Origin: Pseudomonadota bacterium
Lineage (GTDB): Bacteria; Desulfobacterota; Binatia; Binatales; Binataceae
Reading direction: 5' to 3'
DNA length: 64,000 bases
Assembly (NCBI GenBank): GCA_021324855.1
Contig: JAJPIG010000011.1
Location: forward strand, 130,877-194,876
Shown here: in pieces, positions 1 through 16,057 of the stretch
How the letters are laid out: every line of letters starts with the position of its first letter
Numbering within the stretch: the first letter of the stretch is position 1
Translations under genes and position numbers: made by a program
The notes under the pieces: model-generated
Told to the model about the DNA's origin: nothing
Databases searched by the model: none
Seen by the model: only the letters and a program-made list of their open reading frames with translations

Positions 1-854
1 CGCGTTGCGAGGCGGAAAAGATCGCTGTTCGGATCGCCGAGCGCGGAGCCGACCTCGAAGTGATTCAGGCCGCGCAGCAAGACTAAATCGAAAAGCCGGC
101 CGAGCGGCTTGAGCATCGCGGCGAAATCCCGCGCCTGGCGCTGGAACTCGTGCGTCTCCTTCTCCCCGTACGCGATCGCGACCGGACACGGCAGACGATC
201 GAGATGGCGCGCCGGGCTCAGCTCCGCCTCTTCTTCCTTCGAGATCTTTACGTAGCTGCTACGCGCGCTGAGCATCACGGGCTCGAGATCGTACATCCCG
301 CTGACGCACAGCCCGCCCTTGATGATCGTGTTCGGCAAGTCGTGCATCCGCGGCCAATCGGTCACCAGCACATTGGCGGTCAGATGACCGCCTGAAGAGC
401 ATCCTGCAACGTAGAGCCGCTCGGGATCGCCGCCAAGTTCGCGCGCGTTGCGGTAGACCCACGCGACGCCGCGCCGCACCTGCGCGACCATGTCGGGCAA
501 TCGCACCTTCGGGATGTTCGCGAAATTGAGGACGACGAAGTTCGCGCCCGCCGCAACGAACGCGGGCGCGGCGTAGCTCGAATCCTCCTTGCTGAGATTC
601 CGCCACGCACCGCCGTGGATGAACACGAGGATCGGCGCGCCCGGACTGGCGGCCGGAAACAGGTCGAGGGTCTCATCTTCGGTCGGTCCGTACGCGAGGC
701 TTGCGCGATGTTTGAGACGCGCGCGGGCCGCGGCGCTGCCGGTGGTCCATTGCTTGATGACCTCGTCGGCATTCGGCGCCCATGCGCGCTGATCGTAATT
801 GCGATCGAGTTCCGCCTGATCGTAATTGAGATAGACCTTCGGTCCGTCGCCCAT
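1..854 (-). CDS. alpha/beta-hydrolase fold esterase/lipase-like protein; 3' end (C-terminus) runs off the window start
   Basis: Hand translation of the minus strand from an ATG near 854: MGDGPKVYLNYDQAELDRNYDQRAWAPN...ILVFIHGGAWRNLSKEDS...LYVAGCSSGGHL. Contains an HGGAW oxyanion motif and a GCSSG nucleophile elbow (GxSxG). Not in the ORF track because no stop occurs before the window edge. Arg-rich track ORFs 380..883 and 673..912 are wrong-frame shadows of this gene. Confidence 0.55.
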   Translation of the reverse strand, partial: MGDGPKVYLNYDQAELDRNYDQRAWAPNADEVIKQWTTGSAAARARLKHRASLAYGPTEDETLDLFPAASPGAPILVFIHGGAWRNLSKEDSSYAAPAFVAAGANFVVLNFANIPKVRLPDMVAQVRRGVAWVYRNARELGGDPERLYVAGCSSGGHLTANVLVTDWPRMHDLPNTIIKGGLCVSGMYDLEPVMLSARSSYVKISKEEEAELSPARHLDRLPCPVAIAYGEKETHEFQRQARDFAAMLKPLGRLFDLVLLRGLNHFEVGSALGDPNSDLFRLAT

Positions 855-908
855 GATGCTTCCTTGAATTTTCTTCTAGCCAACCGCGGCGCGATTCCGC
901 AACCGCGA

Positions 909-1247
909 TCACGATACGAAGCCGAGCTCCTTCAGCCGCTCGCGCGCCTCATCGGCGCGGTCCGCGTGCACCATCAGGCGCGTCGGCACCGCGGCGGTCG
1001 AGCCGAGCATCCGCGACGACTCGTCGTCGAAGACGAAGTTCTCGATTCCGGCCTCGGTCAGAAAATCGCGCGCGATGCTGACCTGAAACGAATCCATGCC
1101 GGCGAAAACCTCGACCAGCTCTGCGGGATCGAATCGATTATCGGCCACGTTCTGCCTCGCGGGATCGCGATTGATCGCAATCGGCAATGGCTGGATGGAA
1201 AGAAGCGATGCCGCGGACCCGGCGATAGAGCGCAAACGCGATCGCAA
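909..1247 (-). CDS. small DUF2007-like protein (putative signal-transducing protein family); true start probably internal
   Basis: C-terminal ~70 aa (FAGMDSFQVSIARDFLTEAGIENFVFDD...RLMVHADRADEARERLKELGF) resembles the DUF2007 pattern. The listed N-terminus would overlap dedA. Confidence 0.35.
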   Translation of the reverse strand: MRSRLRSIAGSAASLLSIQPLPIAINRDPARQNVADNRFDPAELVEVFAGMDSFQVSIARDFLTEAGIENFVFDDESSRMLGSTAAVPTRLMVHADRADEARERLKELGFVS

Positions 1248-1812
1248 TCGCGATCAAAACCGCGACCAAATTGTCGAAGCGGCGGAAATAAGGTCCGATC
1301 GATTCCCAGTGCTCGCCCAGCTTCATGCCGATCCACGCCAGCATCAGGCACCAGAGATATGAACCGGCGAGTGTGTAAACGCTGAAGGGCGTCAGGCGCA
1401 TCCGTGATACCCCGGCTGGAAACGCGATGAAGGTGCGCACCACCGGCAGCAAGCGTCCGATGAACACCGCGGCGCGGCCGAAGCGATCGAAAAAGCGATC
1501 GGCGATCGCGAGTTCGTGCGGAGTGATTAGGACGTAGCGGCCCCATCGCTCGAGCGCCCAGCGTCCGCCGCTCGCGCCGACCGTGTAGGCGGCGTACGAA
1601 CCGAGCAGGCATCCAAGCGCCCCGGCAATCGCGACCAATTGCAGGTTGAAGCGGCCGGTCGCGACCAGGTAGCCCGAAAACGGCATGATCACTTCGGACG
1701 GCAATGGGATGCACGCGCTTTCGATCGCCATCATCAGGATGACGCCGGCGTAGCCGAGCGCCGCGATAGTCGCGATCACGAACGCCGAGAGCACAGCCAG
1801 CATTTTGTACAT
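1138..1812 (-). CDS. DedA/TVP38 family membrane protein
   Basis: Multi-TM protein with the DedA signature region (FIGRLLPVVRTFIAFPAGVSRMRL, GRYVLITPHELA). Confidence 0.7.
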   Translation of the reverse strand: MYKMLAVLSAFVIATIAALGYAGVILMMAIESACIPLPSEVIMPFSGYLVATGRFNLQLVAIAGALGCLLGSYAAYTVGASGGRWALERWGRYVLITPHELAIADRFFDRFGRAAVFIGRLLPVVRTFIAFPAGVSRMRLTPFSVYTLAGSYLWCLMLAWIGMKLGEHWESIGPYFRRFDNLVAVLIAIAIAFALYRRVRGIASFHPAIADCDQSRSREAERGR

Positions 1813-1911
1813 CGACGGCTTCAGTCCCCCGAATAGGGACAGGCTGCCATGCGCCGCCTTCGGAAGCGAGCGTCAGGCGATGATCGAGCGCGCGATGTTG
1901 AGGCGCGGGGA

Positions 1912-2088
1912 TTAGGCCGGAGCCGGCGCTTTGGGCGTTGATGGGATAGCCTGGACGCTTCCGCGCTCCAGACGCTCCAGGTAGCGGGTCAGGATTTTTG
2001 CCTTCAGCGCCTCGATTGGCTCGCGCGGAAGATTCGCGACCCTCTTGGGCGCGAACAGTGACGGCGAAATCTTGATATCGCTGTCGTT
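1912..2088 (-). CDS. hypothetical 58-aa protein immediately downstream of, and co-oriented with, the metallophosphoesterase
   Basis: Hand-found ORF MNDSDIKISPSLFAPKRVANLPREPIEALKAKILTRYLERLERGSVQAIPSTPKAPAPA. A GGAG lies ~8 nt upstream of the ATG. Below the track's 60-aa cutoff. Confidence 0.3.
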   Translation of the reverse strand, partial: NDSDIKISPSLFAPKRVANLPREPIEALKAKILTRYLERLERGSVQAIPSTPKAPAPA

Positions 2089-2105
2089 CATCCCGGCTCA
2101 CTCCG

Positions 2106-4559
2106 TTATTCGAGCATACGCTGCTGAATTGCGTCGAAGCAAGCTCCTGCCACCGCCGAGCGAAACTCCTCGAATTTGATGGCGAGCTTCTCCTCCGTCA
2201 GTTCCATCAGTTTCGATGCGCGACGTTTCGAGCCGATCGAGAGCACCGCGTAGACCGCATCGGGCTCATCGGGATGGCTCAGGGGAAGCGAAAGGATGAC
2301 TTCGTCTGAAATCTCGGAACCACTCTCGGAGACCACGCCGCCGTCGATCGGCACGAAGTAGAACGGGGCGCTCTCCAGCAGCGCGCGCTGCTTGATGAAC
2401 AGACGGCTGCGGCGGCTCTTGAACGCCCGCCCGGCGATACCCGCGCCGTACTTCAACCTGAGCCGCCAGCGCGGATCGTCGGCGACGAACGTGGCTGCGA
2501 CGATTCGCAACTCGCGCGCCTTCGCGTCGTAGGCCATCAGATCCAGATCGAGCGGATCTTCGGTGCGATCGGCAAGCCCGAAATGTTCGCGTGCGATCTC
2601 CTCAAGGGTGACCAACAGCGCGCGCATCGGATCGTCCGCGGAGGTCGGCGTCGCGAGGCCGAGGAGCCATTGCGACATATCGTGTACTGCGCCAACCAGC
2701 GCCGCGTTGGCACCAATTCTCGGCTCCGGCGCAAGCCGCCATCGCACCTGGTATCGCAGGCCGAGCGGAGGATGCGGGATGCGCAGAAAAAGCACGTTAA
2801 TTTCGCGGCTGTAGAAAAGATTCTGCCGCAACCGATCGGCGACGGCCGAGGCGGGCTGTCCGGAAACCGCGTGGGTTATCAGCAGTTCTGGTTGGCCGTC
2901 GATTACGAAACCCTGCGGGAAATTCACGATTACCACCAGCTCGGCATAGGGACAATGCTGCAGGGTAACCATCGCGGATTCGATCGGCGCGCCGGCGTCA
3001 CCGTACATCTCGCGGTACTGCTCCTGCGACATCGCGTAAGCGTTGATTCCCCAATAGCCCCAAGTGTAGTTGACGGGCGGATCTTCGAACGTGAGTTGCC
3101 GTCCGAAATCGATCGTGGCCGACTGCGACCCCGGCTTGGGATCGGGGTCGCGCTGCAACTGGAGCCCCGCGGTCCATCCGAGAGGCAGCGGATGGGCGTC
3201 GAAGCGTTCGACGCGCCCAACCAGCGATCCGGCGTTCACCTTGTACGGCAGCTTGTCGAGCGGCTGGGCGCCCTTGCCGATCTTGAAGCCCCAGATCTCG
3301 TAAACATGACGCGCGTCGCCGTCCTCATTGATGTTGATCAGCGACATCAGCGTGCCGCCGCTGAAGCCGCGCTGGTCAGCCGCCTCGATGAACTTGCGGC
3401 GTGCGGAAACCTCAGGCTCCTGCGCCCAGAATGCCTGTCCGGGCCGGAAAGTGCCGCCATCCGCGATGTAGGGCAGGACACGTGCGTTGCCGTCGGCTTC
3501 GATCGTCAGCAGATTGAAATTGAAGCCGAAGCGTCCGGGGCGTCGACCGGCGGTCGCGGTGCCCGCGGCCAGTACGCTCGCCTCGAACTGCTCGTTCATC
3601 CCGGCATTGATCGTGACGCGTGAAAAATGATGGTGATGCTTATGGCCGTGCAGCACCAACGGTATCCGCTGATTGCTGATCTCGCTCAGGAACGCACCCG
3701 CATCTTCCATGATCATCAGCGGTTCCTGGCTGGTGTCGTAAGGGATCGGCAGCGGATGATGGTGCAGCAGCGCAATTCGATAGCGCGGCTCGGGCGGCGG
3801 TTCATTCGGTTTGGAGCCGTCGAGGGTGCGCCATTCGGGCGGCTCCTGCGCCTTTACGAATTCCGCCGGACCGATCTCGCCGCGTGCATACTTGCGACCG
3901 CGCGACGAGGAATCGAACGGATAGATGGCGAGCCGAAGATCGGTCCAATGCGTCGGCCGAATCAGCAGATAACTTTTGAACGTTTTTGTGAAATCGCCGA
4001 AACAAGCCACTCGTGCAACCAACGCCGTAATGACAGCCGCGGCCACCGGATAAACTGCCCAGCCCCAGCCCAGGTTCGTGAACAACCGCAGGGCCGCGTA
4101 CAAAACGGCGCAGATGACGAGGCCGATAAGCGGGACCAGCCATTTGAGCCATCGGATCGGGCAGATGCCGAGCACGCGGACATCATGGTTGCCGGTCACG
4201 AGCAGCAGATTGTTGATCGGCGCGCCCGCCTGAGTTTTGGCCGATTCGCGGGCCAGCATCTCAAGGGCCTTGAGGGCGCGCTTGAGCGTCCAGCGAAAGG
4301 GGCTGTTGACGAGATCGCCCGTGACGATAATCAGATGCGGAGCGTGCTCGCGGACGATGCGGCGGAGATTGTTCCACAGCGGGCCGTTGAAGCCACGGCC
4401 GAAGTGAAGATCGGAAAGATGGGCGATGCGGATCGTGGAATCGTTGGGCGCGGATGCGGGCGCCGCGCCGGGAGCCAGTGGCGCAGGTTCGCCGGCGGCG
4501 GGAGGTTTCCCTCCGGGAGCGGGCTCGACCGGCGTCGCTTGCTCGATCGCGGCAGCCAT
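2106..4559 (-). CDS. membrane-inserted calcineurin-like metallophosphoesterase with a long C-terminal extension (GAF-like region)
   Basis: MPE motifs LSDLHFG, GDLVN, GNHD, HHHPL and HGHKHHHH are split by predicted TM helices (WLKWLVPLIGLVICAVLYAALRLF, VYPVAAAVITALVARVACF). The C-terminal ~450 aa include a GAF-like GIAGRAF segment. Confidence 0.7.
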   Translation of the reverse strand: MAAAIEQATPVEPAPGGKPPAAGEPAPLAPGAAPASAPNDSTIRIAHLSDLHFGRGFNGPLWNNLRRIVREHAPHLIIVTGDLVNSPFRWTLKRALKALEMLARESAKTQAGAPINNLLLVTGNHDVRVLGICPIRWLKWLVPLIGLVICAVLYAALRLFTNLGWGWAVYPVAAAVITALVARVACFGDFTKTFKSYLLIRPTHWTDLRLAIYPFDSSSRGRKYARGEIGPAEFVKAQEPPEWRTLDGSKPNEPPPEPRYRIALLHHHPLPIPYDTSQEPLMIMEDAGAFLSEISNQRIPLVLHGHKHHHHFSRVTINAGMNEQFEASVLAAGTATAGRRPGRFGFNFNLLTIEADGNARVLPYIADGGTFRPGQAFWAQEPEVSARRKFIEAADQRGFSGGTLMSLININEDGDARHVYEIWGFKIGKGAQPLDKLPYKVNAGSLVGRVERFDAHPLPLGWTAGLQLQRDPDPKPGSQSATIDFGRQLTFEDPPVNYTWGYWGINAYAMSQEQYREMYGDAGAPIESAMVTLQHCPYAELVVIVNFPQGFVIDGQPELLITHAVSGQPASAVADRLRQNLFYSREINVLFLRIPHPPLGLRYQVRWRLAPEPRIGANAALVGAVHDMSQWLLGLATPTSADDPMRALLVTLEEIAREHFGLADRTEDPLDLDLMAYDAKARELRIVAATFVADDPRWRLRLKYGAGIAGRAFKSRRSRLFIKQRALLESAPFYFVPIDGGVVSESGSEISDEVILSLPLSHPDEPDAVYAVLSIGSKRRASKLMELTEEKLAIKFEEFRSAVAGACFDAIQQRMLE

Positions 4560-4689
4560 CAGCTCGGCAAGTTAGCGAGAGAGATGACAGTTTGTCTATC
4601 GGCCGGAGACGCTTCACCCGCGTGTCGCTTCACGGTATGTTGATGGTCATCACCGAGGGGGCCCAGTTTCGTTTGAACGCGCGCAAGCT

Positions 4690-5203
4690 TTGCACCCGCA
4701 GGCGATCGACGCTCGCGATTGGCTGGGCTGGGGGACCGGCCGCTGCGAGGTGCCTGATGACTGCTCAACGGGGGGCGCGATTTTGAAGCCAGCTAGGTTT
4801 GTCGATTTGTTCTGCGGCATCGGCGGAATGCGTTTGGCCTTCGAAAGCGTAGGGTGCCGCTGCGTCTTTTCCTCTGACTGGGATGTCCACGCACAGAAAA
4901 CCTACTTCGCAAACTTCGGTGAGGTGCCGGCCGGTGATATTAGGCAGATCGCTTCGTCGCAGATTCCAGAGCACGAAATTTTGACCGCCGGATTTCCATG
5001 CCAGCCGTTCTCAATATCGGGTGTTTCAAAAAAGAAGAGCTTGGGCCGCGCACACGGGTTCCGCGATCGAATTCAAGGGCCTCTTTTTTTTTGAGGTTGC
5101 CCGGATCATTCGTGAAAAGAAGCCGCGAATTTGTCCAAGGGAGGGACGAGCACGATGCCTATCGCGACTAGGCGGAAGGCCGCCAAACCCAAGGTTCCAG
5201 TGA
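4690..5203 (+). pseudogene. DNA cytosine-5 methyltransferase (Dcm-type) remnant, frameshifted at a T9 homopolymer and truncated
   Basis: Track ORF 4690..5094 carries motif I (DLFCGIGG) and motif IV (GFPCQPFS). The continuation GPLFFEVARIIREKKPRI (5021..5203) lies in another frame across a T9 run (~5084-5092). No ENV or TRD/motif IX-X follows. Confidence 0.6.
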
Positions 5204-5415
5204 CGCCGGATGACTTCGAGAACACCGAGAAGTTTCAGGAGCATCTCGCCAAGCTCTCGGAGGGATGGGCCAGTGTCATTCGATGCTACAGCTGCAAACA
5301 GGTGGTCATGATTGTGATCAAAGATTTCACGGACATCGTCGGCGACTACAACGAATGGGACAGCGACTCCAAAGCCGTCTGGTGCGCCCGCTGCAAGCCG
5401 CAGGAAATCCTGTAA
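5131..5415 (+). CDS. small hypothetical protein with a CxxC...CxxC zinc-ribbon-like pattern (likely start ATG ~5155 after GGAGGG)
   Basis: CYSCK...CARCK cysteine pairs. RBS-like GGAGGG sits upstream of the ATG encoding MPIATRRK. Lower-GC segment. Confidence 0.35.
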   Translation: MSKGGTSTMPIATRRKAAKPKVPVTPDDFENTEKFQEHLAKLSEGWASVIRCYSCKQVVMIVIKDFTDIVGDYNEWDSDSKAVWCARCKPQEIL

Positions 5416-5481
5416 GCGAAGAGAAGCGAACCGGAACCGTCGACGTCGCGCCTTGCTAGGCTACGCGGAGGGGCGAGTAAG

Positions 5482-5718
5482 TTGGCTATTGTCAGGGAAC
5501 TGAAAATGCGAGTTTTAGAGTCGGACTCGCGACATACTGAGGCAGACGGCACTTATTCTATCGTCCACCGCTCAGACGGCAGCAAAGTTCTGCAGATCGA
5601 TACCTACGGCTCAAAACACCGCCGCCTTCCTGGCAAAGTGAGTCAATCGATCCGATTCTCGCCTGAAGCGCTCGAACAATTGAAAAAGATCCTCATGGAA
5701 AATTTCGGCGGCTCCTGA
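5482..5718 (+). CDS. hypothetical 78-aa protein in a lower-GC segment
   Basis: ORF only. No recognisable motif. Local GC is lower than the flanks. Confidence 0.25.
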   Translation: MAIVRELKMRVLESDSRHTEADGTYSIVHRSDGSKVLQIDTYGSKHRRLPGKVSQSIRFSPEALEQLKKILMENFGGS

Positions 5719-5835
5719 ACACAACGGTTCTCCGATTTTCCGGCCTGCGGCCGACCCGTAAAGCTGGGCTTTGCCATCCTGCGCTTCTCCGCCATACGGC
5801 TTCACGCTATAAGTTAATCAACAAAATCGAGGGGC

Positions 5836-7227
<1,392 letters not shown>

Positions 7228-7238
7228 CGGCGACGGCG

Positions 7239-8192
7239 CTAGCCGATCACAAAACGCGTGCCGACGCTGTTTTGCACGAACGCGTCCGGGAATTCGCGCG
7301 CGATCGCGTGAGTCGCTTTCCATCCGGTGCAGTGCGCCGGCACGACCATCGCCGGACCGATGTCCTTGAGCGCCTCAATTGTCGGCGCGATGATCGGCTC
7401 GAAGATCGGGCCCGAGAGATGGAACCCGCCGATGATCGCGTGAATCCGGCGCACTCCCGTCAGTTCCTGGGCATAGCGGATTGTGTTGATCGCGCCCGCG
7501 TGACCGCATCCGGTGAGCACTACGAGTCCCTTGTCGCGAACGTTTACGACCAGCGCCTGATCGTCGTGGATTAGCGGGTCGCGCTGCCATTCCTTTCCGA
7601 TTTTCGCCCAATGGGTCGGAAAGCCGGTTTCAAACGGCGTCGAGCGATGAATCTGCCCGGTAATCAGAACTGAGTTGCCGAGCAGGTACGACGGGCCGCG
7701 TTCCTCGATCAACTCGATTCCGTCGTGGCGCAGGACGCGCTTGTCGGGCGGCGGCAGCGCCATCTCGTGACCGTCCGGGAAGACTACCTTCCGCTGCAGC
7801 ATCGCATCGGGATGGATCAACAGTGGCATCTTTTGGTGGCCCATCCGGCGAAGCATCCCGGCAAGGCCGTTCGTATGGTCGAGATGACCGTGGCTCAGCG
7901 CGATTGCATGAAGTTCGTTGGGCTTGATTTCCAGCACGTCGAGGTTGTGCATCAGGCCGTCGCGGCTGAGCCCGGCATCGAACAGGATCGCCTCGCCGGT
8001 GTTGCCGGAAAAGACGCGCACGATGGCTGAGAAGCCATGTTCGGCGCGCAGCACCTTCTCGCCGAGCCGTTTGCCGCGCGGGAATCGCTGAACGGTCTGA
8101 TTACCCGGAAGGAGCATGTCGGCGGTATTGTCGAGAACCGTGGTTATTTCGAGTCTATCGACTTCTTTGAGTTTTATAACATCGTTATTCAC
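7239..8192 (-). CDS. MBL-fold metallo-hydrolase
   Basis: HxHxDH motif (SHGHLDHTNG) plus downstream His/Asp ligands. Confidence 0.75.
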   Translation of the reverse strand: MNNDVIKLKEVDRLEITTVLDNTADMLLPGNQTVQRFPRGKRLGEKVLRAEHGFSAIVRVFSGNTGEAILFDAGLSRDGLMHNLDVLEIKPNELHAIALSHGHLDHTNGLAGMLRRMGHQKMPLLIHPDAMLQRKVVFPDGHEMALPPPDKRVLRHDGIELIEERGPSYLLGNSVLITGQIHRSTPFETGFPTHWAKIGKEWQRDPLIHDDQALVVNVRDKGLVVLTGCGHAGAINTIRYAQELTGVRRIHAIIGGFHLSGPIFEPIIAPTIEALKDIGPAMVVPAHCTGWKATHAIAREFPDAFVQNSVGTRFVIG

Positions 8193-8406
8193 TTTGTCCT
8201 CCGTTCTCCACCGTCCGCACCCCGTATCACCGGCCTGTTACGCGACGTAATCAGAACGACACGGTTTCAGCTTAGACCTACTTTATTATGTCTTTACCAC
8301 CTTGATCATGCTTGACATTTTGTACGTAAAGTTAGATGGTGAAAACAGGGCGGAGGATGGATAGAGGGCTTTGGCAGAAGCATTGCCTACTTAAAATCTC
8401 GCGTAT

Positions 8407-8655
8407 ATGGCACAAACCATGGCTTCTGAAGACGAAATATTCACCATCAAGGAACTCTCCGAACATCTGCGCGTCCATCCGACAACCATCTATCGCCTCC
8501 TGAGACAGGGTCGATTGCCCGGCTTTCGCGTCGGCAGCAACTGGCGCTTCAGCCGCGAAGCGATCGAGCAATGGGAGCGCGATCAAGCCGGTCGATCGTC
8601 GGGCGTCTCGCGGCGCGGACAGCATAAAAAAGCGCGCGCGGCGGCTCCGAATTGA
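8407..8655 (+). CDS. excisionase-family helix-turn-helix DNA-binding protein
   Basis: IKELSEHLRVHPTTIYRLLRQGRLPGFRVGSNWRFSREAIEQW matches the excisionase/MerR-like HTH (TIGR01764-type) pattern. Confidence 0.7.
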   Translation: MAQTMASEDEIFTIKELSEHLRVHPTTIYRLLRQGRLPGFRVGSNWRFSREAIEQWERDQAGRSSGVSRRGQHKKARAAAPN

Positions 8656-8663
8656 TTCCGTTC
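8649..8663. repeat. direct repeat GAATTGATTCC[G/C]TTC, copy 1 (overlaps stop codon of the HTH gene)
   Basis: Seen in sequence. Second copy at ~10699..10713. A 10-mer GAATTGATTC also occurs at ~39191. Confidence 0.3.
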
Positions 8664-8884
8664 CTCTCTTGCGCTCGTAGTCTAGCACGATCTGATTGAT
8701 TCGTTTCTTTGATGCACTTTCAGGCAGCCTGCGCTGAACGTCGCATCTGAATCTTCACCCGCTCGGCGTCGTCAACTGATGCACGCATCGCGACAGTTCG
8801 ATTCGCGATACTTGCGCGATTCCGACCCGCGATGCTAACCCGGAAGTTGGATTCGATGCATCTGCCGTAAGAGGAGGCATCCCG

Positions 8885-9529
8885 ATGGCCGACATACCGA
8901 AGTGGCGTGTCGCGGGGGATTGGTTCGATGTCTGTAGTTGCGACATCCCGTGCCCGTGCGAGTTCGCTCAGCCGCCCACCAATGACCGATGCTTCGGCGT
9001 GCTCGCCTATCATGTTCGCGAAGGCCGCTTCGGCGATGTCGCGCTGAACGGTCTCAACCTGGTTCTGGTCGCCTCATTCAGCGGCAATCTATGGGCGGGG
9101 AAGGCGCGCGACCTGCGGATGGGTCTGTTCCTCGATGCGCGCGCGAATGATCGGCAGCGCGATGCGCTCGGGATGATCTTCGGCGGACAGGCGGGCGGCT
9201 TCCCGGCGTGGCTCAACGGGGTCACCGGGCATGCGCAGATGCTCGGTATGGAAGTCGCGCCAATCAAGTTCGAAGTCGCCGCCGATCTCACCAGTTGGAG
9301 CGCCGAGATCGCGGGCAAGGTGAATGCAGCCGCGCGCGCCCTTGGCGGACCGACCACGCCCAAGGGCAAGCTAGTGCAGACGCTCAATCCGCCGGGCTCC
9401 GAGACCGGCGGCGCGGTCGCGACCTGGGGTGACACGACAGCGAACCGCGTCGACGCGATGGGCCTCAAGTGGGACATTACCGGCAAATCGAGCAAGCACA
9501 TCCCCTTCGATTGGTCCGGCCCGGGCTGA
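8885..9529 (+). CDS. DUF1326 domain protein
   Basis: N-terminal WF.VCSCDIPCPCEF cysteine cluster typical of DUF1326. RBS GAGGAGG upstream. Confidence 0.65.
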   Translation: MADIPKWRVAGDWFDVCSCDIPCPCEFAQPPTNDRCFGVLAYHVREGRFGDVALNGLNLVLVASFSGNLWAGKARDLRMGLFLDARANDRQRDALGMIFGGQAGGFPAWLNGVTGHAQMLGMEVAPIKFEVAADLTSWSAEIAGKVNAAARALGGPTTPKGKLVQTLNPPGSETGGAVATWGDTTANRVDAMGLKWDITGKSSKHIPFDWSGPG

Positions 9530-9715
9530 TCGCGCGGAAACGTTTTTCGGAAACCTTTAGACCGTCGCGTCCCGCTCGCACTTCCATCGGGTTTCACCCG
9601 GGCGCTGCGAGCTTTTCAGAGCATGCCGAGCCGCGGATGAAGGCTCTTCCGCTCCTGACGAACTACTTTTTGCACGATCCCGGCGCAATTACACTTGGTG
9701 TCAAACTCAAAGGTC

Positions 9716-10537
9716 TTACCTCCCAAACGGTGCCCAGATTGTTCCCCGCTTCGGCGAGAGAAATTCGTCGATGGGCGTGTCTCTCTTCTCGACCACCGCC
9801 ACGAACGGATACAGATGTACCGACCGCACGGCCGATTGAAACGCAGTCGCCGTGCAGACCAGCCGTCGATCCTGGTTGTCGAAATTCCGTTCCCATCGCT
9901 GGCTCGCATTTAGATTACTCGCGAATCCGTAGATATATGCTGCGAATCTGTTGTGGGCGAAGTGGAGATCCTCGCATAGATAGACGCCGCCTGCCCGCAA
10001 GTGTGGAAGCAGTTCCTCGAATGTGGCTATCTGCTGTTCGCTCTGATGCCCCCCATCGTCGATGACGATATCGAGCTCTGGTACATCCTTTTTGAACTGT
10101 CTCCAAAACCCGCGGTCGGCCTGATCACCAATGAAAACCTTGATTGAACCGTCCTCGTAGGCCTTGCAGGCCGGTTCGATGTCGACGCCGTAGATCCTGG
10201 CTTTTGGACCGAAATACTCCCTCCACATTTCGAGACTGCCGCCGCTGTAAATCCCGATTTCAAGGATATGAACTTCCCTTCCCCGAAATCGGCTGAAGTG
10301 CCTGTCATAAATGTCGAAGTAGTGTTTCCACTTCCAGATTCCATGCCCTTCCTTACGGGCCTCGAAAAACTTCTCCAGATCGCTCTGCTCGGCTTGTGGC
10401 CCTTTCGTCCCTGAACGGCAGGGCCAGAGCTTTGAACGGCGCCAGTTCGAATAGCCGCGCCGGAACGAATTCATCTGTGGCACGGCCGACGCGAGCCGCC
10501 TAAAGGGTCTTGTCACCTTTCTAAACATCAATTGCAC
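9716..10537 (-). CDS. class I SAM-dependent methyltransferase (CmcI/TylF-like fold)
   Basis: Gly-rich motif I (ILEIGIYSGGSLEMW), acidic motif (IVIDDGGH), WKWKHYFDIYDRHF N-terminal segment. Confidence 0.6.
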   Translation of the reverse strand: MQLMFRKVTRPFRRLASAVPQMNSFRRGYSNWRRSKLWPCRSGTKGPQAEQSDLEKFFEARKEGHGIWKWKHYFDIYDRHFSRFRGREVHILEIGIYSGGSLEMWREYFGPKARIYGVDIEPACKAYEDGSIKVFIGDQADRGFWRQFKKDVPELDIVIDDGGHQSEQQIATFEELLPHLRAGGVYLCEDLHFAHNRFAAYIYGFASNLNASQRWERNFDNQDRRLVCTATAFQSAVRSVHLYPFVAVVEKRDTPIDEFLSPKRGTIWAPFGR

Positions 10538-10698
10538 CGAAGAAAATCTCGCGCCTCGAAGCTCCGGGGCGCGGCCGTAAGGATCGCATGAGGTTCTCGC
10601 CGAGTGTCTAAAAAAAACGGTGGCGGGTGCGAAACATTTGCTAACATGGGTACTTTCAAGATCATTTCTGGCGTACGCGCGCTAAGCGCAATGGCGCA

Positions 10699-10713
10699 GA
10701 ATTGATTCCCTTC
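10699..10713. repeat. direct repeat GAATTGATTCC[G/C]TTC, copy 2
   Basis: Matches 8649..8663 at 14/15. Together they bracket the DUF1326 and methyltransferase genes. Confidence 0.3.
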
Positions 10714-10909
10714 GATCCTTTCCGCAAAGCACAACCGCCAAACGTTCCCGGCGATGTAGCTCTAAAAGACACCGATCTGCGATGTCAAGCTGCGCCTCGA
10801 TCGACAGGCAGGCGGAAGATTTTTAGTCACGTGTCGTGGTTTTTCCCTGTTTAAGAAGAGTCAAGCCTCCTTAATTCGTCTTAACGGACCCCTAATCAGG
10901 AGGAGGAAA

Positions 10910-11146
10910 ATGAGAATTCACGCGGGCGCCAGCGCCGTCACACGCCTTCAGGATCAAGCGGCAGCATCTGGTGCTGCAGGCCGAAACTGCCGGGGAAAAC
11001 TGTGGGCTAATCTCGTTGGTGTTGGCTGTATTTGCGGCCTCTTCGCTCACTTACGCGGACATCACACATACGTGCATGATCCCGACGGCCGCCTGGTGGG
11101 CGTCATCGATGCGTCAGGAAACGTAGTGACATACGTTGGGAACTGA
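10910..11146 (+). CDS. YD-repeat (RHS-like) fragment ORF ending exactly at the junction with toxin-module copy 1
   Basis: Strong RBS GGAGGAGG before the ATG. C-terminus HTYVHDPDGRLVGVIDASGNVVTYVGN matches the YD-repeat consensus. A TGA stop falls at the first bases of the conserved block. Confidence 0.4.
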   Translation: MRIHAGASAVTRLQDQAAASGAAGRNCRGKLWANLVGVGCICGLFAHLRGHHTYVHDPDGRLVGVIDASGNVVTYVGN

Positions 11147-11250
11147 AGTATCCGGGCGGACGGCCGGCGGCTCAGGGAGCGACCACCGGCCAATACCCGG
11201 AATGGGCGCCGGGGCAGGAACCGCTGGCGGGGCGGGTTATGTTGGTGGGC
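11133..11250 (+). repeat. conserved ~115-nt block, copy 1 (encodes RWELKYPGGRPAAQGATTGQYPEWAPGQEPLAGRVMLVG)
   Basis: Near-identical at nucleotide level to 12207..12320 and 13390..13507. Confidence 0.8.
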
Positions 11251-11550
11251 GATTATTCAACCCCGGGGGCGACTGCAAATTCGACGCCCCGGCCGCAGAC
11301 GTCTTCTCCGACACCATCCCCAACGGCCCGCTCCGGAAGCCGCTTTTCGAAGGCGTTCAGCGTATGCATAGCCAACGCGCTCGCTGGCCCATTGATTATT
11401 CCTCCGATAGTCTGCGGGGCGAGCGGATACGCATGCGCCCAGGGTTTTGGGATTGCTGAACCAGCTTGCCAAGTAGCAATACCATTTTGCACTGCGACGA
11501 TCGCAACCATCGGTGCATGCGCGACAGGCGTCGGGACGCCTGAGTTCTAG
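11239..11550 (+). CDS. polymorphic-toxin-like C-terminal module, copy 1 (Ser/Thr/Pro-rich linker plus hydrophobic Cys-containing tail); reading frame extends upstream to ~11125, out of frame with the YD ORF
   Basis: Frame-1 translation ...IRWELKYPGGRPAAQGATTGQYPEWAPGQEPLAGRVMLVGDYSTPGATANSTPRPQTSSPTPSPTARSG...CIANALAGPLIIPPIVCGASGYACAQGFGIAEPACQVAIPFCTATIATIGACATGVGTPEF. The track start is only the first in-frame Met. Confidence 0.4.
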   Translation: MLVGDYSTPGATANSTPRPQTSSPTPSPTARSGSRFSKAFSVCIANALAGPLIIPPIVCGASGYACAQGFGIAEPACQVAIPFCTATIATIGACATGVGTPEF

Positions 11551-11586
11551 AGATGTTATGAGAAGCCGTATCATGAGGCTCCATTT

Positions 11587-11964
11587 ATGCAGAATGTAAA
11601 CCTAACAAAGGGGACTCGAAGAACGATTAAAATCGCAATCTGCGCGATACTGATCGCGCAGGTATTAGGAAACATATGCTTATGGTATTTGAAAGCGGGG
11701 CCTGGCAACATGCGAATAGACCCGCGCCTGATTTTCTTGATTTTGCCCGGAATGATTTATTTGATGTGCACAAACGTACCATATGTGCTCGAAAGCTCGG
11801 AGGGCATTAAGCGTCAGGCCATTCATTACGCGAACTGGGCGCTGGCGTTCGGAATCTGGCAATTCTTAGCGCCGATTGGGCAGAGCGCTCTGGTCGCGCT
11901 CTTCGCAGTTGGTGTAGTGATAATGGTGCTTTCTGTGAAAGATGCTATTCGGGTCGAAGCATAG
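11587..11964 (+). CDS. small polytopic membrane protein (putative cognate immunity protein for module 1)
   Basis: ~4 predicted TM helices (IKIAICAILIAQVLGNICLWYL, LIFLILPGMIYLMC, WALAFGIWQFLAPIG, ALVALFAVGVVIMVL). Lower GC. Sits immediately 3' of module 1. Confidence 0.45.
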   Translation: MQNVNLTKGTRRTIKIAICAILIAQVLGNICLWYLKAGPGNMRIDPRLIFLILPGMIYLMCTNVPYVLESSEGIKRQAIHYANWALAFGIWQFLAPIGQSALVALFAVGVVIMVLSVKDAIRVEA

Positions 11965-12011
11965 CCCTGCTTAAGCGGCCATCCCGGTTGGAACCGTTGG
12001 GTTAGCGACCT

Positions 12012-12611
12012 GTGTCGCGGGCACCGCGGGCCGTGGCGGGATCCGACTTCATCGCTTCTCTGATCGCCGCTGACTTTACCGTGGGCATGATCGATCCGGC
12101 CGATCTGATTCCGGCCGCGGCGATCGCCGAGGCTCTCTATGAGATTGCCGACCTGTTCGGGCCTCGATCTGATCGGCGGCGGCCATCCGTACATTCCGCC
12201 GATTACACGTTGGGAACTGAAGCATCCGGGCGGACGGCGGCTCGGGGAGCGACCACCGGCCAATCCCCGGAATGGGCGCCGGGGCAGGAACCGTCGGCAG
12301 GCCGGGTTATGTTGGTTGGCCAGGTTTTCACCACCGCCCCGTATGCCCCATGCCAAGGCGAATGGATACCTCGGCGCCCCCCGGAAGCGTTAGGCTGGGC
12401 AGGCACCGGTACCGGGAGAGGGGAGGAGCCTGCCAATGGGGATGTGGGTTGTAGACAGTTCTGGGGATGCCGCAACTGTGATGACTGCTCCTTTGACTTA
12501 TACTCTGGGACAGGTCCATGGACGATTGGAAGGGGCGATGGCTGTGTAGCCGCTCCGGCCAGCCCGCAGAAGGGTTGTCCTGATATGAAGTTTTGGCGAG
12601 GACATAGATAG
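12012..12611 (+). CDS. polymorphic-toxin-like protein, copy 2 (conserved N-terminal region plus Cys-rich C-terminal domain)
   Basis: N-terminal IAADFTVGMIDPADLIPAAAIAEALYEIADLFG, the conserved block, then the variable tail CQGEWIP...VGCRQFWGCRNCDDCSFDLYSG...QKGCPD. The internal segment is in a shifted frame relative to copy 3 (+1 then -4 nt). Confidence 0.5.
   Translation: MSRAPRAVAGSDFIASLIAADFTVGMIDPADLIPAAAIAEALYEIADLFGPRSDRRRPSVHSADYTLGTEASGRTAARGATTGQSPEWAPGQEPSAGRVMLVGQVFTTAPYAPCQGEWIPRRPPEALGWAGTGTGRGEEPANGDVGCRQFWGCRNCDDCSFDLYSGTGPWTIGRGDGCVAAPASPQKGCPDMKFWRGHR
12207..12320 (+). repeat. conserved ~115-nt block, copy 2 (4 nt shorter)
   Basis: Nucleotide-level near-identity to copies 1 and 3. 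Confidence 0.8.
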
Positions 12612-12625
12612 GGGGCACACGGACC

Positions 12626-13165
12626 GTGAGAATTCTACGGGCTAAAGTCTATTTCCTTTTAATTTTAATTTTTCTTATAAGTACGATCGGCGCTGAGCAG
12701 CGACCCGCTGATGCTGCTCAACGTCCGAGCGCTCTGTTGCTTTATCCCAAGGCATCAAACGTCTCGTCCGGACGGAATGGAAACGACCTCACTTATCACG
12801 TCAATGTTAAGTATCCTGCCTCCGATTTTATCGGCTGGATTTCCAACAGGTTACAGGAGTTAGGCTGGGAGCCCCTTAAGGAGGATTTCCTGAACCCGGG
12901 CCTTCCAACATCTCAAGTAAGAGGCTGGTTGGAGTTCGTCGATGAGCGCAAAAAGCCTGAATTGATTCATCAATGGATCGGCGATTGGAAGGACTCCTCC
13001 GGAAACATCGTACGTTATGCACTTCGGTACAGGAAGCCCGGATATGGTACTTCCGACTTGACTGATTTGGAGGTGATAGCTTCGTACGATTCGGCCTCGA
13101 CTGTGCGCAAGCTACAGCGGAGCGTCGAACGATTCAAAGAGACTCAACAGCGATCCCCTCACTAA
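12626..13165 (+). CDS. secreted protein with signal peptide (putative immunity protein A)
   Basis: N-terminal signal peptide (VYFLLILIFLISTIGA). ~45% identical to the 13833..14339 product (shared FLNPGLPTSQVRGW and DWKDSSGNIVRYA). AT-rich start. Sits immediately 3' of module 2. Confidence 0.5.
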   Translation: MRILRAKVYFLLILIFLISTIGAEQRPADAAQRPSALLLYPKASNVSSGRNGNDLTYHVNVKYPASDFIGWISNRLQELGWEPLKEDFLNPGLPTSQVRGWLEFVDERKKPELIHQWIGDWKDSSGNIVRYALRYRKPGYGTSDLTDLEVIASYDSASTVRKLQRSVERFKETQQRSPH

Positions 13166-13168
13166 CCC

Positions 13169-13801
13169 TTGCTCAAGCGGAGCTTCGTCACCGTGGGCGA
13201 CGGCGCCGCCGCAGGCATGGAGGCGTGTAATGCATTCATCGCCGCTGATCTGGCGTTCGGCGATACGAATCCCGGCACCGCGTTGCCGGCTTGGGCGGTG
13301 GCGGCGATCGCAGAGGCAATTTATGGGATTGCCGACCTGTTCGGCCTCGATCTGTTCGGCGGCGGCCATCCGTACATTCCGCCGATCATACGTTGGGAGA
13401 TAAAGCATCCGGGCGGACGGCCGGCGGCTCAGGGAGCGACCACCGGCCAATACCCGGAATGGGCGCCGGGGCAGGAACCGCTGGCGGGGCGGATCATGTT
13501 GGTGGGCGTGAATGATTGTGGCGGCGAATGGGTGAATACAAAGTCTCGCGACAGTTTGGTCATCTGCTCCCCCAACTATGGCTGCGCGACTCTCGGGTGT
13601 CTTTGTTACTGGGGGTGTCGAGAGTGCGACGGCTCCTTTGACCTATACTCTGGGGACGTAGAGTCCGGGAACGGGCCCACCACGCGAGGCATACCGCTGG
13701 GCAATGGTGGTTGCTCTTGCTTGAATTATCCGGGTCCACAGCAAGGTTGCCAAAAGAATAACCCGCCTGGTCCTGGTATTTGGCGCCGCCGAAACCCTTA
13801 G
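13169..13801 (+). CDS. polymorphic-toxin-like protein, copy 3 (intact frame)
   Basis: AADLAFGDTNPGTALPAWAVAAIAEAIYGIADLFGLDLFGGGHPYIPPIIRWEIKHPGGRPAAQGATTGQYPEWAPGQEPLAGRIMLVG followed by the Cys-rich tail CGGEWVN...CLCYWGCRECDGSFDLYSG...QQGCQK. Confidence 0.55.
   Translation: MLKRSFVTVGDGAAAGMEACNAFIAADLAFGDTNPGTALPAWAVAAIAEAIYGIADLFGLDLFGGGHPYIPPIIRWEIKHPGGRPAAQGATTGQYPEWAPGQEPLAGRIMLVGVNDCGGEWVNTKSRDSLVICSPNYGCATLGCLCYWGCRECDGSFDLYSGDVESGNGPTTRGIPLGNGGCSCLNYPGPQQGCQKNNPPGPGIWRRRNP
13390..13507 (+). repeat. conserved ~115-nt block, copy 3
   Basis: Nucleotide-level near-identity to copies 1 and 2. Confidence 0.8.
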
Positions 13802-13832
13802 ATTTGATGGCCAGGGCGTTAGGAGTATCAAT

Positions 13833-14339
13833 ATGGCGGTTCGAGGCAAGATTTTCGCGGTCTGGGCTATAATTGGTTTAGTCTTGATTCAGGTACATTT
13901 TGTCTACACGCGCGAATATCCTGAAGCACTGCTTGAGTACCCTAGCGCTAAGGCTGCGAAATATAGCGAGGTCGAGGGCAAAACACAGCTTGACTACTTC
14001 TTGGACACCAAGTTTCCCGCTTCAGGGGTGATTGGCTGGGTTTCCGATCACCTTAAGGATGCCGGATGGAAACCACTCACGCATGATTTTCTGAATCCGA
14101 CATTACCCTCATCTCAGGTACAGGGTTGGCGTCACTTCATAGACGGAAGAGGAAAACACGATATCTGCGTTCATGCCTGGACGGGGGACTGGACGGACGC
14201 CTCCGGGAATGTTGTCACGTATGCTTTTATATACCGGACCGTTGATTGTAGCACTTCACATTTGACCAATCTTGAAGTGTTGGTCGTATATTATCCTGCG
14301 CAAACTGCAGAGCAATTCAGAAAGCTCGGAGGCGGATAG
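13833..14339 (+). CDS. secreted protein with signal peptide (putative immunity protein B), paralog of 12626..13165
   Basis: Signal peptide (IFAVWAIIGLVLIQV). Shares FLNPTLPSSQVQGW and DWTDASGNVVTYA with immunity A. Sits immediately 3' of module 3. Confidence 0.5.
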   Translation: MAVRGKIFAVWAIIGLVLIQVHFVYTREYPEALLEYPSAKAAKYSEVEGKTQLDYFLDTKFPASGVIGWVSDHLKDAGWKPLTHDFLNPTLPSSQVQGWRHFIDGRGKHDICVHAWTGDWTDASGNVVTYAFIYRTVDCSTSHLTNLEVLVVYYPAQTAEQFRKLGGG

Positions 14340-14383
14340 CGGCCCGCGGGCTCAGCCCTGCCTCAGCCTGGCCAGCCGAAGAA

Positions 14384-14500
14384 CTCATCGCCGCCGATCT
14401 GACGTTCGGCGATACCAATCCCGGCACGGCGTTACCGGCTTGGACGGTGGCGGCGATCGCCGAGGCCATCTATGGGAGTGCCGACCTGTTCGGGCCTCGA
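14384..14500 (+). pseudogene. truncated fourth copy of the toxin-module N-terminal region
   Basis: ELIAADLTFGDTNPGTALPAWTVAAIAEAIYGSADLFG matches the copy-3 N-terminus at nucleotide level. It carries the copy-2-type variant ttcgggcctcgatctgatcg, then diverges and terminates. Confidence 0.45.
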
Positions 14501-14619
14501 TCTGATCGCAGCCCCCCGCATCGCACGGTTCTTTGCCCTCGCCCAAATTGGGGGAGGCTGAGGGCGCCTGAAGGTCCGATTGACATATGCCCTCTGAGGT
14601 GCGGTGATTTGAGCGGCGC

Positions 14620-15745: not shown

Positions 15746-16057
15746 GTGGGACGCAGAATCCTGGCCGGCTTTGGGACGCTGTTTGTAATCATCTTTTTCG
15801 GCGCGGCACCCTTCGCCGCTGCAGCCGGCCGCACGATCGAAGTGAACGGGCGGGGCGAGGCAAAGGCCAAGCCGGACACGATGCTGCTGTCGTTTGTCGT
15901 CGAAGCCAAAGGCGACAGCGCCGACGAGAGTACAACGGCGCTGACGGAGCGCGCCAAAGCGCTCGGCGCCGCATCGATTCCGAACGCTCTGCCGCGCCTG
16001 ACGCCGCGCGAGGTCAGCTACACCGCCGAAGTCAGCGTGACTTATCAGATCGAGTGA
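15746..16057 (+). CDS. SIMPL/DUF541-like periplasmic protein, N-terminal fragment only (likely remnant)
   Basis: Signal peptide plus RTIEVNGRGEAKAKPDTMLLSFVVEAKGDSADES matches the SIMPL-domain N-terminus. At 103 aa it is ~130 aa short of typical members. Confidence 0.4.
   Translation: MGRRILAGFGTLFVIIFFGAAPFAAAAGRTIEVNGRGEAKAKPDTMLLSFVVEAKGDSADESTTALTERAKALGAASIPNALPRLTPREVSYTAEVSVTYQIE

Follow-up and report, generated by a model that had tools for sequence, protein, structure and literature searches.

It has been reported that RHS toxins can be kept as orphan rhs-CT/rhsI arrays, as in Salmonella Typhimurium LT2 (STM0291/STM0292) and Dickeya dadantii (rhsC), where toxin tips and immunity genes stand in tandem cassettes (PMC3967940, PMC3150448). 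In Salmonella, a 522-bp, 95%-identical stretch was proposed for recombination between main and orphan genes, and main-orphan fusion junctions were found in evolved lineages (PMC3967940); orphan modules keep upstream conserved sequence, without initiation signals (PMC3150448). Here we describe a similar locus in a 64,000-nt stretch of DNA (the window; positions 130,877 to 194,876 of contig JAJPIG010000011.1, assembly GCA_021324855.1), in which a coding block of about 115 nt recurs in three copies. In our reading, to which we give a probability of about 0.82, the block is the end of a post-core module of an RHS toxin family, and the window carries tandem orphan toxin/immunity cassettes whose heads are of recent shared descent and which are stranded and decaying here. 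The locus is best classed with the orphan rhs-CT/rhsI arrays, i.e., with established biology, and it leaves the current understanding of RHS systems unchanged.

The window and the described orphan arrays share the tandem tip and immunity cassettes, tips that keep a conserved upstream coding piece without evident initiation or export signal, near-identical pieces (522 bp at 95% in Salmonella versus ~120–300 nt at 89–95% here), and the occurrence of orphan tips of one locus on full-length genes elsewhere (for the window tails, the RHS protein P0009 and its contig, L007). However, the boundary lies here ~130–150 residues past the PxxxxDPxGL motif, after a module ending ...AGRVMLVG; the full-length relatives appear to have a Sec-type signal peptide plus DUF6531; no PAAR or VgrG was seen in the 1.6 kb available upstream in L007; and the array has no main gene and belongs to an uncultured Binataceae-like soil bacterium. 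Arrays of orphan cdiA-CT/cdiI pairs in contact-dependent growth inhibition (CDI) systems (E. coli EC93 and EC869) likewise keep the pre-toxin junction on displaced fragments, each followed by an immunity gene, and have been considered possible immunity repertoires (PMC3150448). In contrast to these, the window has no VENN motif, haemagglutinin-type repeat or two-partner secretion gene, and the relatives of its cassettes are YD-repeat proteins. A CDI reading of the cassettes was rejected, as no VENN motif was present in the translated cassettes and neither these nor their relatives had a CDI match in Pfam or NCBIfam.

Two further comparisons are relevant. Pre-toxin (PT) domains and the N-terminal "entry" subdomains of CdiA-CT are also conserved modules between a delivery scaffold and a toxin, common to unrelated tips; the module described here differs in having no Pfam, NCBIfam or PDB match. 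Orphan immunity gene islands (poly-immunity clusters of type VI secretion/Rhs systems) resemble the window in combining intact immunity genes, damaged toxin parts and an accessory location; here, unlike in such islands, toxin fragments with conserved heads remain, and the locus looks like a decaying orphan array. It illustrates clearly how such arrays end, with immunity genes kept and toxin parts decaying. It also indicates that an uncultured soil lineage near Candidatus Binataceae diversifies its toxins in the RHS manner, by swappable tips behind a nucleotide-conserved stretch, and the unannotated post-core module can be used to search soil metagenomes for such toxins and the immunity genes that go with them.

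The repeated block and its four cassettes

The three copies of the block are:

11133–11250, + strand: block copy A, reading RWELKYPGG...AGRVMLVG, in a frame that differs from that of the RHS fragment on its 5' side
12207–12320, + strand: block copy B, with a 4-nt deletion after ~12234
13390–13507, + strand: block copy C

Pairwise identity was 89–95% (110/116 nt for A and C, 104/112 for A and B apart from the deletion in B, and 100/112 for B and C). The 27-nt core CCGGAATGGGCGCCGGGGCAGGAACCG occurred exactly three times in the window, compared with an expectation of 0 from 100 dinucleotide-preserving shuffles. The initial annotation, which had reported near-identical copies of ~115 nt at 11133, 12207 and 13390, was therefore right that they exist, and their likeness is not due to chance. 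After gttatgttggtgggc, identity dropped to 39–49% in every pair, and because of this fall the 3' edge is a true boundary in all copies. On the 5' side, homology between B and C ran on for ~90–200 nt (83/91 just upstream, weaker farther out), and this upstream part was also present in a fourth, truncated copy D (58/65 between C and D). The block is the 3' end of a longer conserved coding segment of ~300 nt, which in copy C translates to ...AADLAFGDTNPGTALPAWAVAAIAEAIYGIADLFGLDLFGGGHPYIPPIIRWEIKHPGGRPAAQGATTGQYPEWAPGQEPLAGRIMLVG and is followed by a variable tail and a stop. The apparent 5' edge of the block at "acgttggga" results solely from copy A, where an RHS/YD-repeat fragment adjoins the block at this point in another reading frame. 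Thus, the strongly diverged flanks claimed in the initial annotation were observed on the 3' side and not on the 5' side of B and C, and the conserved handle is longer than the ~115 nt first described.

We examined whether the likeness lies at the nucleotide or at the protein level by the proportions of synonymous (pS) and nonsynonymous (pN) differences, as Nei–Gojobori counts:

A and C, block: pS 0.082, pN 0.040
A and B, block: pS 0.119, pN 0.055
B and C, block: pS 0.208, pN 0.073
B and C, homologous tails: pS 0.75 (saturated), pN 0.41

At identical residues of the block, the same codon was used in 35/36, 30/33 and 28/32 cases (88–97%), whereas the tails of B and C had the same codon in 17/36. 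Window codon usage predicts a codon identity of 0.49, which for the block gives binomial P values of 3e-10, 5e-7 and 7e-6, compared with 0.75 for the tails. Between genomes, the module had the same codons in 24/56, 24/51, 22/46, 14/32, 18/37 and 16/32 cases (43–50%). Because protein constraint leaves codons at this level, the identity of the block within the locus is attributable to recent shared ancestry or to gene conversion. The initial annotation had argued for identity at the nucleotide rather than the protein level, brought about by recombination, and had named equal synonymous divergence inside and outside the block as the finding that would speak against it; block pS of 0.08–0.21 versus 0.75 for the tails bears its argument out. 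There was also some evidence of a mosaic pattern in copy D. In alignment columns 82–136 it agreed with C at ~19 informative events and with B at 2, and in columns 148–199 it agreed with B at 4 sites, including an extra G at 14492 that B also carries, and with C at 2; this C-like 5' and B-like 3' distribution gave a Fisher p of 0.011.

The cassettes comprise the following features, in which the immunity-like genes are named ImmA, ImmB and ImmC and hydrophobic segments are from hydropathy:

10910–11146, + strand: RHS fragment, a 78-aa open reading frame (ORF) with the last YD repeat and the pre-core segment
11251–11550, + strand: tail A, a Pro/Thr-rich linker, then a hydrophobic Cys-containing domain ending PEF
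11587–11964, + strand: ImmA, 125 aa, with three to four hydrophobic segments
12012–12611, + strand: cassette B, a 199-aa ORF with head ~12030–12206, block 12207–12320 and Cys-rich tail 12321–12611
12626–13165, + strand: ImmB, 179 aa, with one N-terminal hydrophobic segment (signal or anchor)
13169–13801, + strand: cassette C, 210 aa from a TTG (202 aa as called in public data), with a conserved head, block 13390–13507 and Cys-rich tail 13508–13801
13833–14339, + strand: ImmC, 168 aa, with one N-terminal hydrophobic segment and AGGAG 7 nt before its ATG
14381–14508, + strand: copy D, a stub of the conserved head that stops short of the block; the next housekeeping gene follows after 112 nt

Except for C, which is the only uninterrupted cassette, the toxin parts are damaged. 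The 78-aa ORF stops four codons past its out-of-frame junction with block A, where it reads HTYVHDPDGRLVGVIDASGNVVTY-VGN-stop. It matched TIGR01643 (YD_repeat) at 18.4 bits (cutoff 15.8) and Pfam RHS_repeat at E 9.5e-4, with 20 bits against a cutoff of 22. Its last 44 aa aligned to the pre-core segment of RHS relatives (ANLI.GGIDEIF..D..G.YTPL.DALGSTIALVDASGNLVT) with 41% identity and E ~0.03 in a 150-sequence database, which is moderate evidence; a protein search with the ORF returned no homologue except itself. Only the first ~20 residues of the core region (TIGR03696) are left in the window, within this ORF. Because the pre-core segment normally lies far upstream of the block (roughly 190–220 residues in the relatives P0002 and P0009), copy A is best explained as the 3' fragment of an RHS gene with an internal out-of-frame deletion. 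The A junction (...GTGACATAC joined to GTTGGGA...) and the sequence before block C (...GATCATAC followed by GTTGGGA...) have CATAC in common, and this fits a deletion mediated by microhomology. In the ORF list, the ATG at 11239 is the only start in the frame of tail A.

Cassette B carries a +1 insertion (an extra G in the run 12159–12161, the one found again in copy D) and the -4 deletion after ~12234, which put ~25 codons of the conserved segment out of frame, including the motif GGGHPYIPP..RWELKHPGG. The same frameshifted sequence is carried by a JGI contig, L004. The two indels are 75 nt apart with a net change of -3, and the 199-aa ORF stays open; such restoration of the frame has a chance of about 1 in 3, and it may be due either to chance or to selection for translating tail B.

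B, C and D each start ~25–70 nt past the stop of the preceding immunity gene, inside the post-core module, and neither a signal peptide nor repeats were found in them. In contrast to the damaged toxin parts, the reading frames of all three immunity-like genes are intact. ImmB and ImmC are 47% identical; tails B and C are 37% identical (36/81 aligned residues), and tail C is 33% identical to the tail of P0009. Scans of all cassette and immunity ORFs against Pfam and NCBIfam left the module, the tails and the immunity proteins without a family, and a promoter and terminator scan gave counts equal to the shuffled expectation. The arrangement suggests that the cassettes are toxin/immunity pairs.

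The post-core module and its full-length relatives

The block forms the last ~39 codons of a post-core module of ~100 codons, which consists of two predicted helices, an LFG.DLFGGGHPYIPP..RWE.KHPGG motif and ~25 further residues ending ...AGR(V/I)MLVG. In relatives, this module sits right after the RHS core end YY.P..GR.LS..GP and right before variable toxin tips. In P0002, and in contigs L003, L005 and L006 from metagenomes, it follows a degenerate core end (...YQFQGMENDAWAYYKPGRYYSPLMGRPLSSTGP...), with a Gly/Ser linker and a hydrophobic stretch in between. A HMMER profile scan of 1.8 billion representative proteins gave 1718 hits; since the profile included the RHS core of P0002, most of these were core hits, and a hit is informative only if its match reaches positions >160. 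All hits that reached into the module had the motif family LFG(.DL)FGGG.P..PP..R.E..H.., and GGG.P..PP..R.E..H.GG was conserved across distant relatives. One relative, P0009, has 1323 aa with DUF6531, RHS_repeat (E 2e-21), YD_repeat_2x (E 1e-21) and a partial Rhs_assc_core match, and by eye its N-terminus looks like a signal peptide. YD/RHS repeats are thus present in relatives that carry the module, such as P0009, and one such repeat is left in the window, in the 78-aa ORF.

Behind the module, relatives carry tips of several unrelated kinds. They include phospholipase A2 (PLA2) tips with a CC..HD.CY signature (P0005, P0019 and P0059), a 3D-domain tip by Pfam (L003 20–790), Cys-rich tips homologous to tails B and C of the window (P0009 and P0012), and hydrophobic Cys-containing tips of the A type (L005, L006 and the first orphan of L007). 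The demarcation between conserved and variable sequence is sharp, and it comes after ...AGR(V/I)MLVG. In P0135 the module follows a canonical core end, NNPVNEIDPTGM; because of this placement, the module would belong to the part released together with the toxin and travel with the tip.

An intact counterpart of the window locus was found in L007 (JGI Ga0438459_0012918, 1–9284), where the full-length RHS gene encoding P0009 (L007 1683–5654) is followed in order by an immunity-like ORF, orphan 1, an ImmA-like ORF, orphan 2 and the start of a third orphan. The main gene has a B/C-type tail, and the ORF after it is 43% identical to ImmB. Orphan 1 starts inside the post-core module and has a tail 39% identical to tail A, and the ORF after this A-type tail is 55% identical to ImmA. 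Orphan 2 begins inside the RHS core; the third orphan start (L007 9078–9160) is 88% identical to 4727–4809 of the same contig. Nucleotide repeats occur in L007 at the same places, i.e., one of 191 nt (97%) at the core end and one of 113 nt (85%) that closes with ...LVGDNTPP. Because the tail/ORF pairs of the window (A with ImmA; B and C with ImmB and ImmC) have homologous pairs in L007, tail and immunity ORF co-vary across two independent loci. By these sequence comparisons the window array is the orphan part of an L007-like locus. The initial annotation had likened the block to an RHS core/tip junction, and the position of the same segment between core end and unrelated tips, together with the layout of L007, agrees with it; compared with canonical RHS proteins, however, the handle sits in the post-core module and not at PxxxxDPxGL. 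An additional short ORF upstream in L007 (1274–1660) has RHS_repeat and TIG matches.

With regard to targets, the PLA2 and 3D tips point to envelope-directed toxins in this RHS subfamily. Because of these tips, of the Cys-rich B and C tails with putatively exported partners, and of the hydrophobic tail A with its multi-pass membrane ORF, the envelope is the likely target of the cassette toxins. A-type tails (window 11251–11550; L007 6328–6978) both end ...(T/L)PEF and have a common pattern of spaced Cys in a hydrophobic, Ala/Gly-rich stretch, with a membrane ORF of three to four segments as partner; they may represent a membrane-active toxin family that lacks annotation.

The module had no match in Pfam, NCBIfam or PDB, and the only database hint was a glycine-zipper 2TM match of the helical part of L007 orphan 1 (E 7.5e-4, below cutoff). 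An AlphaFold2 model of cassette C from a 12-sequence alignment was too poor for use (mean predicted local distance difference test score 47, predicted template modelling score 0.20). A word-indexed protein search with cassette C found itself and one relative only, and a scan of genome contigs for the module motif gave no confirmed match. P0273 and P0001 are a single protein, written with V and M, respectively. We tentatively propose that the module could be an undescribed pre-toxin/translocation domain (a helical hairpin plus LFGGG.P..PP..R.E..H.GG), confined to RHS toxins that uncultured soil lineages (Binataceae-like and others) export by Sec, which would carry envelope-directed tips (PLA2, 3D-domain, Cys-rich) into the target periplasm or membrane, and that the Cys-rich B/C tail and the exported immunity protein paired with it could form a new toxin/immunity family.

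Origin of the array and alternative readings

The reading of the window as a stranded orphan array would involve the following steps. In signal-peptide-bearing RHS toxins of soil bacteria, the module would lie between the RHS shell and an exchangeable C-terminal toxin. The window would then represent four tandem orphan cassettes, each combining a conserved head with a variable toxin tail and the immunity gene that matches it. The heads may have arisen by repeated displacement of old tips by newly recombined ones, by gene conversion from head to head, or through the two processes together. If Salmonella rhs is taken as a guide, the shared stretch would in intact loci let homologous recombination place an orphan tip on the full-length gene. 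In this genome, with A joined in the wrong frame to an RHS fragment, B frameshifted and D reduced to a stub, the system would be stranded and decaying. Because only C and all three immunity genes stay intact, the present benefit of the locus is most likely immunity to the toxins of neighbours.

Several observations weigh against this reading. No full-length RHS gene was present in the island that holds the array or in the whole window, and no RHS-like sequence was found there besides the 78-aa ORF, whose first ~30 residues gave a weak RHS alignment (E ~0.05). In relatives, TIGR03696 (Rhs_assc_core) was matched over model positions 1–54 of 76 with 21.7, 18.0 and 27.8 bits against a cutoff of 32.5, and neither the window cassettes nor most relatives contain the PxxxxDPxGL demarcation motif. 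The differences among blocks A, B and C fit a star tree, so the block alone is no proof of conversion as opposed to recent duplication or displacement, and the mosaic evidence from copy D rests on few sites of the upstream head. Protein searches found a near-identical module only in the window's own cassettes, hence no known recombination partner; the nearest other module was 59–65% identical and came from another organism. Finally, the public contigs with ImmA, ImmC, B or C were searched for rearranged joins, and all proved collinear with the window (seven contigs, none with an alternative junction). This last result also concerns the initial annotation, which had proposed freely variable surroundings and cassette shuffling. 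The 3' tails are indeed variable; in contrast, the sequence upstream of the block is conserved, and present-day shuffling is hypothetical, given collinear contigs without rearrangement, a window with no full-length recipient gene and two disrupted cassettes out of three.

The alternative that survives best, although we consider it unlikely, is a live reservoir: a full-length RHS gene with the same module, unassembled or unbinned, would exist elsewhere, and the block would still move tip C (or A or B after repair) onto that gene. Metagenome-assembled genomes (MAGs) often lack RHS genes, which are repetitive, and contigs of several assemblies break at the repeats. The uninterrupted cassette C and the restored frame of B (net -3) also speak for it. 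However, the protein searches placed no near-identical module outside the window, the seven contigs had no variant junctions, and A and B are disrupted, which is more in line with a stranded array.

Two further explanations are very improbable. The block could be a cis-acting nucleic-acid element, such as a structured RNA, a shufflon-like target of a site-specific recombinase or a signal for internal translation initiation. For example, all three copies have an in-frame ATG (of VMLVG) 12 nt before the block end, which in the case of tail A provides the only start. However, this Met is not conserved in L007 (RIQLVGD), Rfam gave no match at E ≤ 1, RNA folding z-scores were 0.24, 0.88 and -0.04, inverted repeats were only weak and at chance level, and no recombinase ORF was noticed in the island. 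Similarly, precursors of ribosomally synthesized and post-translationally modified peptides or other bacteriocins would have a conserved leader, a hypervariable Cys-rich core and their own immunity gene, and the conserved N-terminal part, the variable Cys-rich or hydrophobic C-terminal part and the small membrane or exported ORF that follows match this outline; against it, the "leader" homologues are fused to RHS shells of >1000 aa, the tips of relatives are enzymes (PLA2, 3D domain), and the island contains no modification or export genes.

The remaining two can be dismissed briefly. Protein constraint alone can hardly have made the block copies alike, even though GGG.P..PP..R.E..H.GG is kept in distant relatives, because the copies of the locus hardly differ at synonymous sites (35/36 identical codons for A and C), whereas between genomes the conserved residues have the same codon in only 43–50% of cases, as codon usage predicts. 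A repeat made or homogenized by mis-assembly of strain mixtures is just as implausible: several short contigs do end at or inside repeats, yet the seven public metagenome contigs (sample identifiers from two ENA, two JGI and one Logan read run) show 100% identity to the window throughout their overlap with it, frameshifts included, and together span every junction (L004 11946–13117, L098 13178–15312, L001 3193–14586), which makes assembly error unlikely.

The accessory island and its surroundings

The array lies in an island that is bounded as follows:

9530–14575, no strand: accessory island of ~5.1 kb with a Methyltransf_24 gene, the RHS fragment and four cassette heads
9716–10537, - strand: Methyltransf_24 gene

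In Binataceae MAG contigs L092 and L093, the DUF1326 gene and the 361-aa gene adjoin each other ~78 nt apart (L092 9945–10023), whereas in the window they are separated by the 5.1 kb at 9530–14575. In a 94%-identical relative (L088–L091), homology to the window begins at 14575 (L088 ~9956), with other genes upstream (UPF0093, MFS). We consider the array accessory DNA because it is absent from these related Binataceae genomes. The GC content was 0.70 in the blocks, 0.65 in the heads, 0.57–0.60 in the tails and 0.49 in the immunity genes, compared with 0.61 in the window; such a GC mosaic is the usual contrast between RHS core and tip. The flanking genes were closest to Candidatus Binataceae MAGs (80% and 76% for a 363-aa protein), and the citrate synthase was 84% identical to that of a Centralia soil MAG labelled Proteobacteria.

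Minor observations were made on contig ends and on the neighbourhood of the island. Contigs L002, L095, L096, L099 and L001 have ends at window positions 11206, 11257, 13463 and 14586, at or beside repeat copies; this is typical repeat fragmentation, without sign of alternative joins. At window position ~15964 there is no counterpart of 749 nt of L088 (11347–12095), which lie inside a 353-aa SIMPL-domain gene (L088 11128–12189); in the window only a remnant of this gene seems to be left (ORF 15746–16057), which suggests a deletion. Beside the citrate synthase, the window has a Lactamase_B-fold gene (7239–8192, - strand) where Binataceae MAGs have PF14373 Imm_superinfect (L092 7896–8435). This is a second variable slot near the island, and an HTH_17 gene (8407–8655) lies between the two.

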